A stretch of DNA of 64,000 nt, taken from contig WQVG01000003.1 in the NCBI GenBank assembly GCA_009781675.1, positions 3,117 through 67,116 on the forward strand. The letters run 5' to 3'. The position numbers and the translations under genes were made by a program. How positions within the stretch are numbered: position 1 is the first letter of the stretch; every line of letters begins with the position of its first letter. Source of the DNA: Candidatus Bathycorpusculum acetigenes. Lineage in GTDB: Archaea; Thermoproteota; Bathyarchaeia; Bathyarchaeales; Bathycorpusculaceae. The notes beneath the pieces are model-generated. The model did not search any database, was not told the DNA's origin, and saw only the letters and a list, made by a program, of their open reading frames with translations. Below are positions 36,592 through 44,524 of the stretch, piece by piece.

Positions 36592-37078
36592 AATTAATCC
36601 ATTTGTGAATTTTCCTTTTGTCCTGAGCGCTCTTGATTTTTTTGTGGTGCTTCCAAAGGACATTTTGCAGAGAAGGCACCTTAAGGGCTTGGGCAAGTTT
36701 TCGCACCATTTCTAGACAAGTTTGCTGAGTCCATTTTCCCGCTGAGAAGGTGCCCATTTAAAAGGTAGAACAGGAAACGGTAATCTGACGAAAAATTTAT
36801 AAATAAACAGCAGATAAAACACCTGATAAACTTGCCGCCTAAAAATTTAATTGCATTAAATTATTTTTTTAGCGATCTTTATACATTAGGGCTCAAAACC
36901 GAAAAAATGTGCCCAATATCAAAATCTTATGATAAAAAAATTTGCAAACAAGTAATATCACCTTTTGCGGCGGCAAACTTTAAACGTCACACCTTTTATG
37001 TTGACACTGCAACATTAACCTCCGATATGTCTAGTTTCTGTGGCAAATACGGCAACATGTCACAGGAGGAATAATAAT

Positions 37079-37447
37079 ATGGGAACATACAAACAACCAT
37101 GTATGCATTGTGGAGCATTAATAGAACGAGACAGCCATTTTTGTACCAAATGCGGCAGTCATAGCCCCTTCGGATATCACTGCCCCTCTTGCCGAAAACA
37201 GATTGAGCGCGGAAACGCCATATGCTCCGGTTGCGGGCGTAACTTAATGACCCCTTGCCCTTTTTGTAACGGACAAACTTTCATTGGAAGCGAGAAATGT
37301 GATGCCTGCCAAAAATCCGTAATGATCCATTGTGAAAATGACCGATGCGGTAAACTTCAATTCTTCGAAAATACAAAATGTACCGCCTGTGGTAAACCCA
37401 TAAAAAATACAAAAAAACAACTTGAAAAAATGAAAAAGGAGAATTAA
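37079..37447 (+). CDS. Multi-zinc-ribbon protein (four tandem CxxC...CxxC ribbons, 122 aa)
   Basis: CMHCG/CTKCG, CPSCR/CSGCG, CPFCN/CDAC, CEND..CG/CTACG. AGGAGG 10 nt upstream of ATG 37079. Confidence 0.6.
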   Translation: MGTYKQPCMHCGALIERDSHFCTKCGSHSPFGYHCPSCRKQIERGNAICSGCGRNLMTPCPFCNGQTFIGSEKCDACQKSVMIHCENDRCGKLQFFENTKCTACGKPIKNTKKQLEKMKKEN

Positions 37448-37452
37448 CTAAT

Positions 37453-38217
37453 ATGTTACAACCCTTTACAAGAAATTACCATGACAATAGCACTGATGCA
37501 GGGCATCAGTTCACATTCTATTGCGACATATGTAATGACGGATATAAATCCAGCTTTATCGAATCGGCTACATACAAAAAGAAGAAAAAATCCAACTTTT
37601 TTGGCCAAAGTGCCGGTTTAGTCGGCGGATTCTTAGGCGGTGCAGCACAAAAAATTGGTTCTACCGCAGAACGCGGAGGAAACATCCTGTCCAAACAGCA
37701 CGAAGGGAAATCCCCTGAATGGCAAAAGGAACATGAGCAAGCCTTTGAGCAGGCTCAAAATGAGGCCAAACAACATTTCCACCGATGTCCCAACTGTAAC
37801 AAATACGTTTGCGACCACTGCCACAATGAAGACGCCGGACTCTGCACTGCCTGCGCACCTCGACAAGAAGTCTATGTAGCAAAAACACACGCACAAGTCA
37901 TGAAACGCGATATAGACACAGCCGGACAAACAGCCACAGTATGGCAAGGCAAAATCGAAAGTAAAACAACCATGTGCACCGCCTGCGGCAAACCTGCCGG
38001 AACAGGCAAATTCTGCAATAGTTGCGGAGCAAGCATGGAACTAAAAGAATGCCTCAAATGCGGCGCAAAAAACGCACCAACCGTCCGTTTCTGCAATAAC
38101 TGTGGAGAAAACCTACAAACAGCAACTGCCGCCACACCCACGGGTCAGTGCTCCTCTTGCGGGTTTAACAATCCCTCAGGAACAAAATTTTGCGGCGAAT
38201 GCGGAAATAAATTATAA
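37453..38217 (+). CDS. Zinc-ribbon-rich protein (254 aa) with a Gly-rich hydrophobic segment
   Basis: CDICN, CPNCNKYVCDHCH..CTAC, CTACG/CNSCG, CLKCG/CNNCG, CSSCG/CGECG. AAGGAG SD. 5-nt gap from the upstream gene. Confidence 0.6.
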   Translation: MLQPFTRNYHDNSTDAGHQFTFYCDICNDGYKSSFIESATYKKKKKSNFFGQSAGLVGGFLGGAAQKIGSTAERGGNILSKQHEGKSPEWQKEHEQAFEQAQNEAKQHFHRCPNCNKYVCDHCHNEDAGLCTACAPRQEVYVAKTHAQVMKRDIDTAGQTATVWQGKIESKTTMCTACGKPAGTGKFCNSCGASMELKECLKCGAKNAPTVRFCNNCGENLQTATAATPTGQCSSCGFNNPSGTKFCGECGNKL

Positions 38218-38293: not shown

Positions 38294-39655
38294 ATGGATT
38301 TATCCAACATTAAAAGTGGCGGTTCACCCAAACAGGCACAATCTGCCATGGAATACGTGGCACAGGCCGCTTCTCCTCTAATAAATGGCGAGGTCAAATT
38401 AACAATTAGCGACAATGCCCTAATAGCGATAGCGTTATTTGATGCTATAGAGATAACTTTTGCCGAGATAAACACTTTAGACTTGACAAATTATATTGTA
38501 ACAGTTAAGGCAGACAGTGGCGATTATACTTTTTCCCACATGGGTAACTGGTGCCAGCCGTTTTATGACACATTATGCGATGCATACAACAAGGCCGTGT
38601 TACGCTCTTTATTTATCAAAAACAACCCTATATTAACAGCAAAGGGTGAATATCGCTATAATGAAAACGGAGAAAACAAAAACACATCTGCAGTTCCTAT
38701 TTACATCTATGAAAACAATGTAACAGCCTTACCCCCTAATCTGTCTGCACGACGCGTTCCCCTCTGCTTTATAACCGCTATAGAAAGGGGTGATTATGAG
38801 TTGACTCTGCGATTAGACACAGGTGAAACCTATACCTATGCCAAGATAGGCTATGATACAGCTATATTCACAGACACCGTTGAAAAACAGCTCCGTAAAC
38901 TACGAGAAGAATCACTTATAGCAATCAAAGGAATCGACCCAGCACTCACAGCCGCACAGGCTTCCCAAATCGCTAAAATCATGCCCCCGGGCGTAGCAGT
39001 TCCTATTGGCAAGCTTGCAGAGATAGCACCATCATTTAGAGAGGCATTAGAAAATAAAATTGCCACTTCACGCGCTAACAAAAGTTATATAATATTAAAA
39101 GAATTATGCGATCCAACACAAATATTTGTAGGATTTCGAAAAAATGAAACGTTGCAAGACATCGACGGTTTGTCCGATGCAATATTTGAAAGCGCAAGTA
39201 GCATACCCCTTGGCTCGACTGGCGGGAGTAATACATTTGAAACATCAAACGGTTTAACAGATGCCAACAATGAGACCAAAGAAACAAAAACTGCCTCCTC
39301 TGATCCATACCTGATATGGTTAATCGCGCCATCCCCTGATGGTCAATTCGCCACGGTGGAATTTGCCGAAGCCGATAGTGCAACATTTGTTTACCATACA
39401 GGCGGCAACTTTACCACTTTTGCCAGACAGATCAACCGTGCATTGGAAGCAATAAATTTCAAACGTGAGGTCATTCGCATGACCGACAAAGAACTGCAAA
39501 AACCCGAAAACGCCGATTACTACATGGCAGCCAAACGGACAACCGCTCTACAATTCGTCCGTTCCAACTTTGTTGGAAGGATAATTCACTCAAACATGGA
39601 AAACTGGAAACAAAAACTAACAGAATTATGGAACAGTACAGACTACAACGGTTAA
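38294..39655 (+). CDS. Hypothetical protein (453 aa), no recognised domain
   Basis: Long clean ORF with AGGAG SD. Same strand as, and close to, the zinc-ribbon genes. Confidence 0.55.
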   Translation: MDLSNIKSGGSPKQAQSAMEYVAQAASPLINGEVKLTISDNALIAIALFDAIEITFAEINTLDLTNYIVTVKADSGDYTFSHMGNWCQPFYDTLCDAYNKAVLRSLFIKNNPILTAKGEYRYNENGENKNTSAVPIYIYENNVTALPPNLSARRVPLCFITAIERGDYELTLRLDTGETYTYAKIGYDTAIFTDTVEKQLRKLREESLIAIKGIDPALTAAQASQIAKIMPPGVAVPIGKLAEIAPSFREALENKIATSRANKSYIILKELCDPTQIFVGFRKNETLQDIDGLSDAIFESASSIPLGSTGGSNTFETSNGLTDANNETKETKTASSDPYLIWLIAPSPDGQFATVEFAEADSATFVYHTGGNFTTFARQINRALEAINFKREVIRMTDKELQKPENADYYMAAKRTTALQFVRSNFVGRIIHSNMENWKQKLTELWNSTDYNG

Positions 39656-39977
39656 ATCAGGCTCAACATAGATGTATATGTTGCGTCAAACGCAAACCTG
39701 CTCAACAAACACTATTGGGCTATAAGCGTGGTTTGATGAGTGTATTTATGCCAAAGCGGTCTTGGGGGTGGGCATTTGGGCTTTGTTTTGGGTGGTGGTG
39801 TGGCAGTTGGGGCTTGGTATAACACAGAGCTAACCGAGATAGCCTCATATACTTTTCTGCCAAATATACCGACAAGCAGGCGACAATATGACCCAAAAAA
39901 CTAAACACCGCGCACTTTATGAGTATTCGATTTCGGATCCGCTAATTCTATGCTTAAGCAAAGAGAATTTTTAGCAG

Positions 39978-40856
39978 GTGTTTAAAGATATGGATATATT
40001 GTTGTATTTAGTGGAGTTTTTAGTATTTATAGTATCAATAATTTGTTCCTTCAAATTTTTGGTTAAATGGTATGAACCCTTGCTTTCAAAACGCCCGCTT
40101 AACAGGAACAAATCGGCAAGATACATACTGGGCTTACTGCCGATAGGTTCTTTTTGTGTTATTTTATTTACCTTAAAAATGTTAGCTTCGTTCGATGTTG
40201 TGGACAGTTTTATTTATATTTCGATGTATATGGTTTTAGGGATTGCATGGCTTTTCCTTGGAGCGACGCTTATGTCGTGTGTTTTTGATTTGTCATGGCT
40301 TGACGATGCGCTGAATTTGAATAATAAAGCCGCTTTAATAGCGGTTGTGGGTGGATTTCTTGGATTAACACTTATTTATTCTGGTGCAAATATCGGAAAC
40401 GGACCGGGATGGTGGTGTGTTGTTTTTACCGGAGGCTTAGGTCTTGTTGCATGGATCGTTCTTGGGCTTGTAATCAACAGTTGCACAAAAACTTTTGAGC
40501 GCATTACCGTTGAGAGAGATATTGGATGTGGAATACGGTTTGGATCTTACCTGTTGGCAAGCGGAATTATTTTGGCGAGAGCGTGCGCCGGAGATTGGAC
40601 TTCTTTTTATATAACCTTAGTTGAATTTATAGACGGCTGGTCGGTGCTTGTTTTAGCAGGAATTTTGATTTTAGTTGAGCTATACTATATTCATAAGGCC
40701 AAATCGAACAAAACTAATAATGCTATTTTCGGTTCAATATTTTTGGCAGTTGTTTTTATAGCAATGGCGATCACGATTGTATATTTGTTGCCACCAACAA
40801 GTGGAAACCCAATATATAGAGTAGCACTTGAAGTCTTTTGGAGCCTGCATATATGA
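39978..40856 (+). CDS. Polytopic membrane protein with two DUF350 (YjfL)-like repeats
   Basis: Two repeats of an acidic stretch followed by a small-residue-rich helix (DDALNLNNKAALIAVVGGFLGLTLIYSGA and ERDIGCGIRFGSYLLASGIILARACAG), as in the DUF350 family. Confidence 0.5.
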   Translation: MFKDMDILLYLVEFLVFIVSIICSFKFLVKWYEPLLSKRPLNRNKSARYILGLLPIGSFCVILFTLKMLASFDVVDSFIYISMYMVLGIAWLFLGATLMSCVFDLSWLDDALNLNNKAALIAVVGGFLGLTLIYSGANIGNGPGWWCVVFTGGLGLVAWIVLGLVINSCTKTFERITVERDIGCGIRFGSYLLASGIILARACAGDWTSFYITLVEFIDGWSVLVLAGILILVELYYIHKAKSNKTNNAIFGSIFLAVVFIAMAITIVYLLPPTSGNPIYRVALEVFWSLHI

Positions 40857-42070
40857 AACATTCAATTAAACTTGAGCTGATACCCGAGGATAAGTATTCC
40901 GATTATCGGTACACCGTTATTTTCAAAGCGTACAAATGGGATCCGCAGGTTGGGGACAATAATACCGTTTCCAAGCATGTTGTCATATTAGACCCAAAAA
41001 CTGTTGAACAATTAAAATCATGGGCTGAACAGTTGTCAAGCGAAACAATGCTTATGGAAGAAGGACTGTTAAAAAACCTTCTTTTAGCAAAAGAATTGGG
41101 GTTACCTGATAAAATAAGAAAAACACTTGGTCGTACGTCAAATTATAATCGAAATAAAAATGTCCGGCTGATGCGTTTTGATTTTCATCCAACTAAAACT
41201 GGGTGGGCTATATCGGAGGTAAATAGCGATGTGCCGGGAGGTTTTGCGGAAGCATCGATTTTACCCGAGATTACCAATACATATTTTGACGGATACACGC
41301 CCGCCGAAAACTTTTCAAACATAATGGTTGAAGCCTTTAAAAGCAAAACTAAAGTTGCCGCAAATATAGCTTTTGTTCACGCGACAGCCTACTCTGACGA
41401 CCGACAAGTTATGCAGTTTTTAAGCGACCGTTTCATGGAAAACGGCATGAACACAGTTTTTGCTGCGCCCGATCATATAAAATGGGTAGATAAAAAGGCG
41501 TTTAGCATTGTAGAAGGAAATGAATGTGAAATAGATGGTATTATTCGATTTTTCCCATTAGAATGGCTTGTCAGTTTGCCGCGAACAGCGAAATGGCAAG
41601 GATATTACGACTGTGAAACGGTATCCTGCAATCATCCGGCAGCCATATTGACACAATCAAAAAGATTACCTCTTATTTGGGATAAACTTGGCGTTAAAAT
41701 TCCTGTATGGAAAGAATTGTTACCAGAGACAAAATCTCCAAAGGATATAAATCCACAAAATACTGATTGGATTTATAAACCGGCACTCGGAAGGGTTGGT
41801 GAAGGAATTTCAATCAAAGGAGCAATCAGTAAAAAGGAACTGGTAGAGATTGAAAAGTCCGCGCGTAGGGATTCAAAAAACTGGATTTCTCAGCGAATGT
41901 TTGAAAGCGTTCCTGTTAAATCAGTAAATGGTGAAAATTATCATTTGTGCCTGGGCGTGTTTACGATAGACGGAAAATTTGCAGGATTTTATGGAAGAAT
42001 CAGCTTGTATCCACGCATAGATTCTAACGCGGAAGATATTTCGGTATTGGTATCAAAGGAGGACGTGTAA
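40853..42070 (+). CDS. Glutathionylspermidine synthase-like (GspS/YgiC/YjfC family) ATP-grasp amidoligase
   Basis: Colinear motif matches to E. coli YjfC as recalled: RFDFH..WAISEVNSDVPGG, FFPLEW, ILTQSKRLPLIW, IYKPALGRVGEGI, LGVFTIDGKFAGFYGR. ATGA overlap with the upstream gene. Confidence 0.75.
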   Translation: MKHSIKLELIPEDKYSDYRYTVIFKAYKWDPQVGDNNTVSKHVVILDPKTVEQLKSWAEQLSSETMLMEEGLLKNLLLAKELGLPDKIRKTLGRTSNYNRNKNVRLMRFDFHPTKTGWAISEVNSDVPGGFAEASILPEITNTYFDGYTPAENFSNIMVEAFKSKTKVAANIAFVHATAYSDDRQVMQFLSDRFMENGMNTVFAAPDHIKWVDKKAFSIVEGNECEIDGIIRFFPLEWLVSLPRTAKWQGYYDCETVSCNHPAAILTQSKRLPLIWDKLGVKIPVWKELLPETKSPKDINPQNTDWIYKPALGRVGEGISIKGAISKKELVEIEKSARRDSKNWISQRMFESVPVKSVNGENYHLCLGVFTIDGKFAGFYGRISLYPRIDSNAEDISVLVSKEDV

Positions 42071-42831
42071 TGAAAGACAAAATGAGCCTGTATAAAATTT
42101 GGGCTCCGGACAACGCTTTGTGGACGCAATGGACAAAGCCTGTGCTGTTTGCAAGTTTACCCTGTAATACTGGTGATTGCGAGTTAAAACCGCCTAGTGC
42201 TGACCATATGCAAATGGTTGATTACAATGCGGTTATTATTGTAGATTTACCCGGAAAAGAAAGTGTTGACGAAGGACTGGTTTTGGCGCAGTGCGGATAT
42301 AGACCGGTTCCTCTGTACAACGGAGTATACGGTAATTCAAAATTTTCAATGATTGTAGATGTACAGGGCATTGCCGAAGCGTTGCAAGAGGGCGCCGATA
42401 TGCTGTCTTCGTTAAATATCAGAGCGGATGCTCCACCGGTATTTCTATTAGATTCTAACAGAATGACAGGCCAAGGAAAACAACCGGGCAAATATGATAA
42501 CCGTTGGTGTGTTTTTCCGCAGGATATGCCCTCCGCGTCTTTTCTTTTGAAAAACGGTATTCAAAAAATTATCGTACGCTCCACAAGGATTCAAGAAGAT
42601 TTAGCGCACATTTTATTACGTTATCAAAATCAGGGTATCAATATTTTTCTATGCAGCAATGACGAAATCCTAAAGGAGATAAAAGTTTCAAAACCGTCAT
42701 TGTTTATGAGCTTTTTTTACCGTTTCAAGGTAACTCTCGGCTTAAGCCGTAACGCAACCGGCGGATTTGGCGCAGTTATCCCCGAACCGCAAATAGGCTG
42801 GTCAAACAGGAGCTATTATTGGTATGGATAG
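42070..42831 (+). CDS. Hypothetical protein (253 aa) translationally coupled to the ATP-grasp gene
   Basis: TAATG overlap. AGGAGG 8 nt upstream. No motif recognised. Confidence 0.55.
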   Translation: MKDKMSLYKIWAPDNALWTQWTKPVLFASLPCNTGDCELKPPSADHMQMVDYNAVIIVDLPGKESVDEGLVLAQCGYRPVPLYNGVYGNSKFSMIVDVQGIAEALQEGADMLSSLNIRADAPPVFLLDSNRMTGQGKQPGKYDNRWCVFPQDMPSASFLLKNGIQKIIVRSTRIQEDLAHILLRYQNQGINIFLCSNDEILKEIKVSKPSLFMSFFYRFKVTLGLSRNATGGFGAVIPEPQIGWSNRSYYWYG

Positions 42832-42995: not shown

Positions 42996-43496
42996 TCAAG
43001 ATTTAGGCTTTTCTCTGCAATGGCATTCATCAGAAACGCAAGTACAATTTGGATTATAGCCGCTAGCGCATTCATCGCTACAGGTGCACTCCTCAATCAT
43101 AATGGTCCATTTAAGACCAAATTTGTCTTCAAGCTCTGCATAGCATTTATTCCAAAATGTTTCCTGCGCCTCACAAAATACTTTCCCGCCCTCTTTTAGA
43201 ATTTCAAATGCTGACTTGACACTTTCTGCTGTTTGAAGTTCTACACAAGCAAACGAACCATTGCCAAAAGTTGTCGGTTGACTAGGGGTCGTATCGCAAA
43301 GATAAATTGTGCTATTGCCAATTGGGAGTATACCGTGCATAATTAATTCTTCTGTGCCGGGTTGTATTGGATACTCCTTCGATGGTGGTGTATCTTTGTA
43401 TTGGCAATAATTAGCTTTTGTGTTAAATGCTTTCTCGTAGAGTTTAATTGCCTCTGCACAATTTCCATTGAAAATTAAATAAAGTGATGCTTTCAT
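42996..43496 (-). CDS. VOC/glyoxalase-superfamily PhnB-like protein with a Cys-rich C-terminal tail
   Basis: N-terminus MKASLYLIFNGNCAEAIKLYEKAF and GLKWTIM are typical of PhnB-like proteins. Tail is CTCSDECASGYNPNCTCVSDECHC. Confidence 0.7.
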   Translation of the reverse strand: MKASLYLIFNGNCAEAIKLYEKAFNTKANYCQYKDTPPSKEYPIQPGTEELIMHGILPIGNSTIYLCDTTPSQPTTFGNGSFACVELQTAESVKSAFEILKEGGKVFCEAQETFWNKCYAELEDKFGLKWTIMIEECTCSDECASGYNPNCTCVSDECHCREKPKS

Positions 43497-44095: not shown

Positions 44096-44524
44096 ATGCA
44101 ACTCGAAATATTTATCAATTTTGACGGTAACTGCCGTGAAGCGGTAGAGTTCTATGCAAAAGTATTCAAATCAGAGGTTAGAAACCTTATGACTTATGCA
44201 GACGCGCCGCCTGATCCAAAATATCCTTTAAAAGAAGCTGACCGCGACAGAATAGTGTACGCTGGAATACCCATTGGCGGCATGACCGTAATGTTTATGG
44301 ATCTGCCTTCCGATTCACCGCTTACTGTGGGCGATAATATAACGCCAACCATCAGTACCGATAATAAAGATGAAGTTACAAGGTTGTTTAACGAGTTGAA
44401 AGAAGGTGGCGAAGTCTATATGGAACTTCAAAAAGCCTTTTTCAGCGAATGGTACGGTATGGTCAAAGATAAGTTCGGCGTGATATGGCAGATATTACAT
44501 TACGTCCCACAAAAAAAATTTTAG
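44096..44524 (+). CDS. VOC/glyoxalase-superfamily PhnB-like protein
   Basis: MQLEIFINFDGNCREAVEFYAKVF ... FGVIWQI. Confidence 0.75.
   Translation: MQLEIFINFDGNCREAVEFYAKVFKSEVRNLMTYADAPPDPKYPLKEADRDRIVYAGIPIGGMTVMFMDLPSDSPLTVGDNITPTISTDNKDEVTRLFNELKEGGEVYMELQKAFFSEWYGMVKDKFGVIWQILHYVPQKKF

Follow-up and report, generated by a model that had tools for sequence, protein, structure and literature searches.

The window analysed here is a stretch of 64,000 nucleotides of the archaeon Candidatus Bathycorpusculum acetigenes (contig WQVG01000003.1, positions 3,117 to 67,116 of the forward strand). It carries three overlapping genes, which encode a DUF350 membrane protein (MEM), an ATP-grasp ligase (LIG) and a protein of an unnamed family (THIRD), and which we discuss as a candidate module for the amidation of a protein C terminus. 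The features of this cassette, in window coordinates, are as follows:

39990..40856, + strand: MEM, 288 amino acids (aa) from the ATG at 39990, as in the public gene calls; the GTG at 39978 is an alternative start
40853..42070, + strand: LIG, 405 aa, a stand-alone ligase of the ATP-grasp type (GspS/YgiC/YjfC family)
42070..42831, + strand: THIRD, a 253-aa cytoplasmic protein of an unnamed family
42057..42062, + strand: Shine-Dalgarno sequence AGGAGG for THIRD, within the 3' end of LIG, read from the sequence
42748..42828, + strand: tail of THIRD (residues 227-253), the proposed docking motif and terminal glycine
39826..39977, + strand: leader/promoter region, conserved, non-coding and alignable among Bathycorpusculum contigs

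As described in the first-pass annotation, which was made from the sequence before any database search, the three genes lie on the same strand with overlapping stop and start codons. The stop codon of MEM and the start codon of LIG share ATGA (40853-40856), and those of LIG and THIRD share TAATG (42068-42072). The AGGAGG noted ahead of the third gene is present at 42057-42062; the claim of strong Shine-Dalgarno sites holds for THIRD but not for MEM and LIG, which have GGAG or AGGTG. The leader of ~150 bp before MEM can be aligned with three other Bathycorpusculum contigs at a mean column identity of 82%, the sequence to its left not being alignable, and it contains an AT-rich box, AATTTTTAG, ~20 nt 5' of the ATG at 39990. 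An Rfam search of the cassette and its leader matched no family.

The middle gene had been assigned to the GspS/YjfC-type ATP-grasp ligases, and Pfam, fold and catalytic residues agree on this point. LIG matched the Pfam GSP_synth model (PF03738) over residues 41-380 with an E-value of 4e-26 and 92.4 bits (cut-off 29.3), and the glutathionylspermidine synthase family of PHROGs with an E-value of 3e-16. When its AlphaFold2 model, which has a predicted local distance difference test score (pLDDT) of 90, was compared with known structures by Foldseek, the top matches were YjfC (7uk6; TM-score 0.74/0.76, E-value 8e-19), YgiC (7uk8/7uka) and GspSA (2io8), each with a probability of 1.00; the synthetase domain of GspSA gave a TM-score of 0.72 and an E-value of 2e-18. 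Identity to YjfC and YgiC is only 16-19%, and PDB sequence searches with the LIG sequence, the LIG profile and the THIRD profile returned no match, the link between LIG and 7uk6 coming from fold comparison only. Alignment with YjfC, YgiC and GspSA showed the motifs listed beforehand to be colinear with the family. Twelve residues (R108, D110, E122, N124, D126, E133, E237, K309, R314, G316, Q347 and R382) do not vary in an alignment that, besides LIG and GspSA, includes YjfC, YgiC and two other homologs; nor do the same catalytic residues vary among 120 close homologs. In the light of the GspSA structures, the R-x-D, E-x-N-x-D, K-P..R-x-G, Q and R elements would be those that handle the nucleotide, Mg and the acyl-phosphate. 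Because the catalytic residues are invariant both in the family alignment and among close homologs, LIG is, as judged by its residues and predicted fold, a catalytically intact GspS-type ATP-grasp; the GSP_synth match and the presumed ATP-binding residues, on which the earlier assignment had been made to depend, are both present. LIG has no CHAP amidase domain, its N terminus corresponding to the point at which the synthetase domain of GspSA begins, and it scored 35.9 bits against the NCBIfam GspSA equivalog PRK10507 (cut-off 882), over the synthetase part only. It also carries an insertion of its own, WxGYYDC..SCNHP.

At the level of chemistry, enzymes of this family activate the C-terminal carboxylate of a peptide and couple it to a polyamine (PMC11762307, PMC12568646, PMC11117183). 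In the GspS reaction, the carboxylate of the glycine of glutathione is phosphorylated, after which spermidine receives the acyl group (PMC11117183). The products of yjfC and ygiC are named peptide--spermidine ligases in RefSeq, and a 2025 review, quoting Pederick et al. 2023, attributes peptide-spermidine ligase activity to YgiC and gives its physiological substrate as unknown (PMC11762307; see also PMC12568646). The earlier statement that YgiC and YjfC have no established substrate is therefore correct as regards the physiological substrate but overlooks the activity named in RefSeq.

MEM matched Pfam DUF350 (PF03994) with an E-value of 9e-11 and 42.4 bits (cut-off 26) over model positions 3-132 of 133, the Pfam check suggested for the first gene thus yielding the expected family. 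Its residues 69-199 form one full DUF350 unit that aligns with the entire E. coli YjfL at 25% identity, and eight hydrophobic segments predict about eight transmembrane helices, extra helices lying on either side of the unit. The first-pass annotation had seen two DUF350-like repeats in this protein. Only the single unit was found: hhalign detected no internal repeat, either between the two halves or between the central unit and the N- or C-terminal parts (probability <=1%), and a tandem DUF350 duplication was rejected on this profile self-comparison. Across 61 homologs, D69, D105, D106, N134, the motif GxGPGWW, E170, R176, D177 and D202 are conserved, and the conserved acidic residues of the DUF350 core may be read as a hint of a polyamine. 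The parallel drawn with E. coli, in which the ligase is coupled with a DUF350 membrane protein as yjfC is with yjfL, was borne out, the DUF350 gene lying just upstream in both loci.

THIRD, in which no motif had been recognised, matched no family of Pfam, NCBIfam, PADLOC or PHROGs. A protein of Candidatus Bathycorpusculum matches it at 100% identity; one database search yielded 1234 homologs, a second 1372 clusters formed at 50% identity. The protein begins MKDKMSLYKIWAPDN and contains no hydrophobic segment, signal peptide or transmembrane segment. In its AlphaFold2 model (pLDDT 86.7), short N-terminal helices bearing an invariant Trp-rich motif (W11, P13, W18, W21, K23, P24, F27) precede a Rossmann-like alpha/beta core at about residues 54-224. 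The structure comparison recommended for this gene revealed no relative at an E-value below 1e-3 when the model was run with Foldseek against PDB and BFVD. The best PDB match, an inactive E1 Rossmann domain (E-value 2e-3, TM-score 0.26), and the best viral matches, which are weak and SLOG-like (TM-score <0.3), are uninformative, and the fold could be placed in no known family. Homology to DUF1190 (YjfM) was rejected, with an hhalign probability of 0.1% and no match to the Pfam DUF1190 model, and none to YjfK (DUF2491) was detected.

To survey gene neighbourhoods, as had been advised, one genome per species was taken, which gave 78 loci, and open reading frames (ORFs) were searched with hidden Markov models for MEM, LIG and THIRD. 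The trio is complete in at least 65 of the 69 informative loci, in the order MEM-LIG-THIRD in 64 loci; 9 loci are cut by a contig end. The remaining arrangements are few. All three genes are present in L033, with the ligase split by a frameshift; L041 holds only a ligase fragment; and in L070 the partner gene stands alone. The order THIRD-MEM-LIG was found in a Synergistaceae metagenome-assembled genome (MAG), complete in L056 and leaving the contig before the ligase in L045. In a Defluviitaleaceae MAG (L084 4841-7287), the ligase is accompanied by a partner fused to 4-5 transmembrane helices and there is no separate DUF350/MEM gene; this partner has a long Gly/Tyr/Arg-rich tail that ends GFGG. 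No fourth conserved gene was found beside the trio, the commonest flanking family, in 9 loci, being a generic sensor kinase, and the flanks are wholly different in Breznakiella, Anaerocolumna and Acetivibrionales. These data indicate that the trio is a self-contained mobile cassette with obligate three-gene linkage. As a side observation, the THIRD protein of the Synergistaceae MAG carries an N-terminal zinc ribbon (L045 5755-6759; L056 1273-2283).

The hosts are mainly Bacillota, with further copies in Spirochaetota, Synergistota, Lentisphaerota, Verrucomicrobiota, Planctomycetota, Elusimicrobiota, Acidobacteriota, Myxococcota and Mycoplasmatota; the only archaeal hosts in the survey are termite-gut Bathyarchaeia of the Bathycorpusculum group. 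When the window was compared with four related archaeal contigs, DNA similarity of 83-93% was confined to ~39826-42831, that is, to the cassette and its 150-bp leader; in one of the four, a homolog of another gene of the window adjoins the trio. Because archaeal copies were found only in Bathycorpusculum and the boundaries of the cassette are sharp, its transfer from bacteria to archaea, into the Bathycorpusculum lineage, is well supported, and the cassette documents such a transfer within the termite-gut community. Horizontal acquisition had been suggested on the ground of a visibly AT-rich stretch. The suggestion stands on phyletic distribution and boundaries but not on base composition: the GC content of the cassette, 39.6% vs 43.1% for the window, is not distinctive, as 11% of same-size windows are equally low or lower, and an AT-rich island as a sign of transfer was ruled out. 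A chimeric assembly, raised earlier as a possible artefact, is unlikely. The same 20-kb arrangement is found in the JGI/NCBI and ENA assemblies, which possibly share reads, and the cassette recurs in four other Bathycorpusculum-type contigs. An origin in a defence system or phage was also rejected: the PADLOC defence models matched none of six proteins, and among PHROGs only LIG matched. We further note a 2989-bp contig binned as Fibrimonadaceae (L012, JAITUM010000053.1), which over 2.7 kb shares 81% DNA identity with the archaeal cassette and is far nearer to it than any other bacterial copy; either the contig was mis-binned or the cassette was exchanged between domains very recently.

The most conspicuous feature of THIRD is its C terminus. 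From R227 it reads R-N-A-T, GGFG (residues 231-234) and AVIPEP, followed by a spacer and the end YYWYG253, residues 246-253 being disordered in the model (pLDDT <50). In the family consensus, R-N-x-x-G-G-F-G-x-x-I-P-x-P leads into a spacer rich in Gly, Ser and Pro, and the last two positions are a hydrophobic or aromatic residue and Gly. GGFG is present in at least 95% of distant representatives. The final residue is Gly in 119/120 close homologs, in 72/76 complete genome copies and in 131/150 representatives with less than 50% identity, where Ser (9), Ala (5) and six others, several of them tail-less, account for the rest. At loci with an intact ligase the partner ends with Gly in 63 of 64 cases and with Ser in one. 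However, where the ligase is missing (L070) the partner ends with Phe, and where it is frameshifted or fused (L029) the partner ends with Asn, a 621-aa ORF at L029 4900-6765 joining the frameshifted ligase to a partner that has lost its terminal Gly. For the association between terminal residue and ligase state, Fisher's exact test gave p = 0.0014, or 0.008 if two loci in which the ligase is fragmentary are moved to the disrupted class. Tail integrity thus tracks ligase presence. The 253-aa protein had been put forward as a candidate partner or substrate of the ligase: the near-universal three-gene linkage marks it as an obligate partner, and the conserved C-terminal Gly tail makes the substrate idea plausible.

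Similar tails were found beside related ligases. In E. coli, the product of yjfM (DUF1190), directly upstream of yjfC, ends SSGGFTTKKASTVSRGGYGRSSSARGHWGG (SRGGYG...HWGG), and that of ygiB, upstream of ygiC, ends RSMGG; among YgiB homologs, GG[FY]G occurs within the last 45 residues in 119/120 and the terminus is GG in 117/120. YjfC homologs spread over a plasmid/chromid collection were then considered, picked before their neighbours were viewed, and the adjacent genes were read. The tails beside these ligases are:

Rhizobium: RQGFGGRSSFSFGG
Sulfitobacter: SRGGFGRAGGSRGFGG
Vibrio: SRGGWGSSVSSRSSWGG
Sphingomonas: SRGGFGSSARRFGSIHA
Azospirillum oryzae: RSAGFGSTGSSRGFSGS
Arthrobacter: TRGGFGGGAKGGGGHGG
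Nocardia: QRGGLGSKSTGGGGS
Trichormus: VSGFGSFRSGGSSS
Leptolyngbya: VSGMGSSRSGGASS
Bacillus cereus: SGSSGIGNAKAPAGS, a loose version
Bacillus N5-665: SRTGGSGGG, Gly-rich only

A recognisable tail therefore lies beside 9-10 of 12 diverse homologs besides YgiC and YjfC, the tenth being the loose version of B. cereus; the ligase locus of Azospirillum argentinense has no tail-bearing neighbour. Of 13 tails scored (the 11 neighbours, YgiB and YjfM), 10 conform to the broad motif, small last residue included; B. cereus has only the looser form, Rhizobium (QGFG) just misses both patterns and Bacillus N5-665 is only Gly-rich. Among 1539 other ORFs of at least 100 aa, GG[FY]G was found in the last 45 residues of none (0/1539) and the broad motif with a small terminal residue in 5/1539. 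As a negative control, the neighbours of gss, which encodes the glutathione-using GspSA, have no such tail. The tail-bearing neighbours are not homologous to THIRD and have only the tail in common with it. Both the ygiB-ygiC and the Sulfitobacter pair have the tail in the absence of a DUF350 gene, so it is the ligase, not DUF350, that the tail accompanies. The 168-aa protein encoded upstream of the Arthrobacter ligase, which bears an RGGFG...HGG tail, is annotated as a tRNA-dihydrouridine synthase; this annotation looks wrong.

We propose that the cassette is a protein C-terminal amidation module in which LIG would activate the terminal Gly carboxylate of its partner, the candidate substrate, for amidation, probably by a polyamine, while the DUF350 protein would supply the amine or a membrane site. 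We give this reading a probability of roughly 0.5. LIG would dock on the GGFG of the tail of the co-translated THIRD, the spacer providing reach; LIG and ATP would then phosphorylate the alpha-carboxylate of the terminal glycine, with the chemistry that GspS applies to the glycine of glutathione. An amine would then accept the acyl group, leaving THIRD with a cationic C-terminal adduct; the most likely acceptor would be a polyamine, for example spermidine or putrescine. MEM, at the membrane, might supply or import the amine or bind the modified tail. Ligase and partner are physically coupled, through their overlapping codons, through a natural fusion protein (P0331) and through the transmembrane-fused partner of L084; the latter, with its GFGG end and no MEM, would fit a membrane-proximal reaction. 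A polyamine is favoured because of the precedent within the family, because on an Arthrobacter plasmid (L090 4896-7546) the ligase gene overlaps a downstream gene for a permease of the amino acid/polyamine/organocation (APC) family, and because operons of DUF350 and GspS-like genes have been linked with polyamine genes (PMC11237479).

The same logic may apply to YgiB-YgiC and YjfM-YjfC of E. coli. In its widest form, stand-alone GspS-like ligases, including YgiC and YjfC, would be protein C-terminal polyamine ligases whose natural substrate is the RGGFG...Gly-COOH tail of the adjacent protein; this modification would be coupled to the membrane via DUF350 and would have passed between bacteria and archaea in the form of a three-gene cassette. 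We advance this generalisation only tentatively, and consider it somewhat less probable than not.

Several observations weigh against the amidation of a partner tail, and each has to be set against the alternative that it favours. Most partners outside the cassette (DUF1190 proteins and others) start with a signal peptide, a lipobox or a signal anchor, the lipoboxes of YgiB and YjfM being LAGC and LKGC. A cytoplasmic ATP-dependent ligase could reach the tails of such exported partners only before or during export, which weakens the generalisation. The objection does not apply to the cassette described here, as THIRD has no export signal. The tail might instead be a low-complexity element related to the envelope or membrane, serving, for instance, in sorting, in tail-specific proteolysis or in DUF350 binding, that co-occurs with the ligase through a common function in envelope stress while the ligase acts elsewhere. 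Besides the many partners predicted to be lipoproteins or secreted, this account could draw on YgiB, which is treated as an envelope protein and rises in a tail-specific-protease mutant (PMC13435647), and on published ties to PspA operons (PMC11237479). We nevertheless regard it as improbable: the tail occurs at the two loci described above that have no DUF350 gene, THIRD has neither a signal peptide nor a transmembrane segment, the motif is very rare in background ORFs and adjacency to the ligase is nearly universal.

The globular part of THIRD raises a second objection to the proposed amidation module. Among representatives with less than 50% identity, N84, D128, R131, D143-N144-R145, D152, S155 and D177 are 97-100% conserved, Q151 93% and H180, of the D177-x-x-H180 pair, 88%. 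These approximately ten invariant polar residues on the core look like an active or ligand-binding site, which a pure substrate role would leave unexplained. In addition, the family includes a small tail-less clade (P0331, of 673 aa, P0333 and P0334), in which P0331 is a natural ligase-partner fusion. Because of this clade and of the invariant polar residues, the globular domain must have a role of its own with the ligase, for which the tail is not needed. Such findings would be expected if the cassette served a small-molecule pathway, in which LIG joins the carboxylate of a free peptide or metabolite to a polyamine, as YgiC and YjfC do in vitro, the tail only docks or gates, and DUF350 exports or imports the compound. 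THIRD would then be a second enzyme or a regulator, for instance a hydrolase like the amidase half of GspSA, whose two-domain organisation is echoed by the tail-less clade and the ligase fusion; the exported partners of other lineages likewise argue against direct modification. However, a CHAP- or Cys-type (Cys/His) amidase is excluded, since position 147, always Cys in close homologs, varies between V, M, C, L and I in distant homologs, and no hydrolase or other enzyme matched the fold of THIRD. Docking, moreover, leaves unexplained why a terminal Gly or small residue is kept across lineages and lost where the ligase is lost, and partners of unrelated folds have only the tail in common. On balance we find this pathway rather unlikely, although it is the main competitor.

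A third difficulty for the modification of the tail by LIG lies in the spacer between GGFG and the C terminus, whose length varies over 0-33 residues (median 13-19). A variable spacer between conserved ends is what one might see if THIRD were a precursor of the kind known from ribosomally synthesised and post-translationally modified peptides (RiPPs), whose tail is cleaved, capped with a polyamine by the ligase and exported as a product by DUF350. The family does have peptide-spermidine ligase activity on free peptides, and the cassette encodes a membrane protein. However, it comprises only three genes, no conserved protease or tailoring gene lies beside the trio, and conservation of the 220-aa globular part far exceeds what a leader would require, so that we consider such a route very unlikely.

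Compared with yjfL-yjfM-yjfC, which lies at the end of the yjfIJKLMC PspA-family operon, and with ygiB-ygiC, the cassette encodes a ligase alike in fold and catalytic residues, shows the same tight spacing or gene overlap and shares with YgiB and YjfM the R-GG[FY]G ... hydrophobic-G-G tail, a feature defined here and not taken from the literature. It differs from them in that MEM has ~8 predicted transmembrane helices, whereas YjfL has 4, and in that THIRD is not a DUF1190 protein and has no lipobox, but is a cytoplasmic protein with a Rossmann-like core. The cassette also lacks genes for PspA, YjfI and YjfK, and its order is MEM-LIG-partner, whereas that of the yjf operon is MEM-partner-LIG. 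With GspSA (gss) and trypanothione synthetase, LIG shares the ATP-grasp synthetase domain and its invariant residues. In GspSA, the carboxylate of a C-terminal glycine is activated and forms an amide with a polyamine, and the same is proposed for LIG, which, however, has no CHAP amidase and whose proposed acyl donor is a protein tail instead of glutathione.

ATP-grasp or carboxylate-amine ligases that act on protein C termini include RimK on S6, LysX on the carrier LysW, tubulin tyrosine ligase and PafA on Pup. What these systems have in common with the proposed one is a dedicated, co-encoded protein with a flexible C terminus, at or close to which an ATP-dependent ligase activates a carboxylate. 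In contrast, LIG belongs to the GspS-like subfamily and not to the RimK, tubulin tyrosine ligase or GS-like ones; the terminal residue is Gly and not Glu, the expected nucleophile is a polyamine in place of an amino acid or lysine, and a membrane protein is an obligate third component of the cassette. With ubiquitin-like and Pup-like modifiers only the C-terminal Gly is shared: the partner is a Rossmann-like protein of 253 aa, and the enzyme is an ATP-grasp, not an E1- or PafA-like one.

The ligase and DUF350 families, and their association, were already known (PMC11237479). New, relative to the literature and databases searched, are the THIRD family, the three-gene cassette with its inter-domain spread, and the shared Gly-ended tail, a candidate for the substrate on which all ligases of the family act; in the literature on DUF350 or DUF1190 with these ligases we found no proposal of the tail as a substrate, though Iyer et al. 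2009 might already discuss such tails. The substrate of YgiC and YjfC, flagged as open in a review (PMC11762307), thereby gains a specific and testable candidate, the Gly-ended tail of the neighbouring protein. The cassette offers the cleanest version of the problem, with a partner without export signal, three genes and hundreds of diverse homologs. If confirmed, its reaction would be a new kind of protein C-terminal modification and would give a first functional handle on DUF350 proteins; if the generalisation is true as well, C-terminal glycine polyamination would be an unrecognised post-translational modification.

Several genes in the vicinity of the cassette deserve mention. Just upstream, at 38294-39655 (+), the window encodes a 453-aa protein without a Pfam match. 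Full-length homologs of 30-32% identity occur in three MAGs, directly 3' of the trio in one of Oscillospiraceae and close to it in two of Clostridia; the coordinates listed with this protein are L019 6868-8133, L016 782-2071 and L020 1-195. It may be a loose accessory or a piece of the transferred block. Two double-zinc-ribbon proteins are encoded further upstream, at 37040-37447 and 37453-38217 (+). Just downstream lie two paralogous genes of the glyoxalase/3-dmu-9_3-mt family, at 42996-43496 (-) and 44096-44524 (+), which are 33% identical; the product of the first has a Cys-rich C-terminal extension, CTCSDECASGYNPNCTCVSDECHC.

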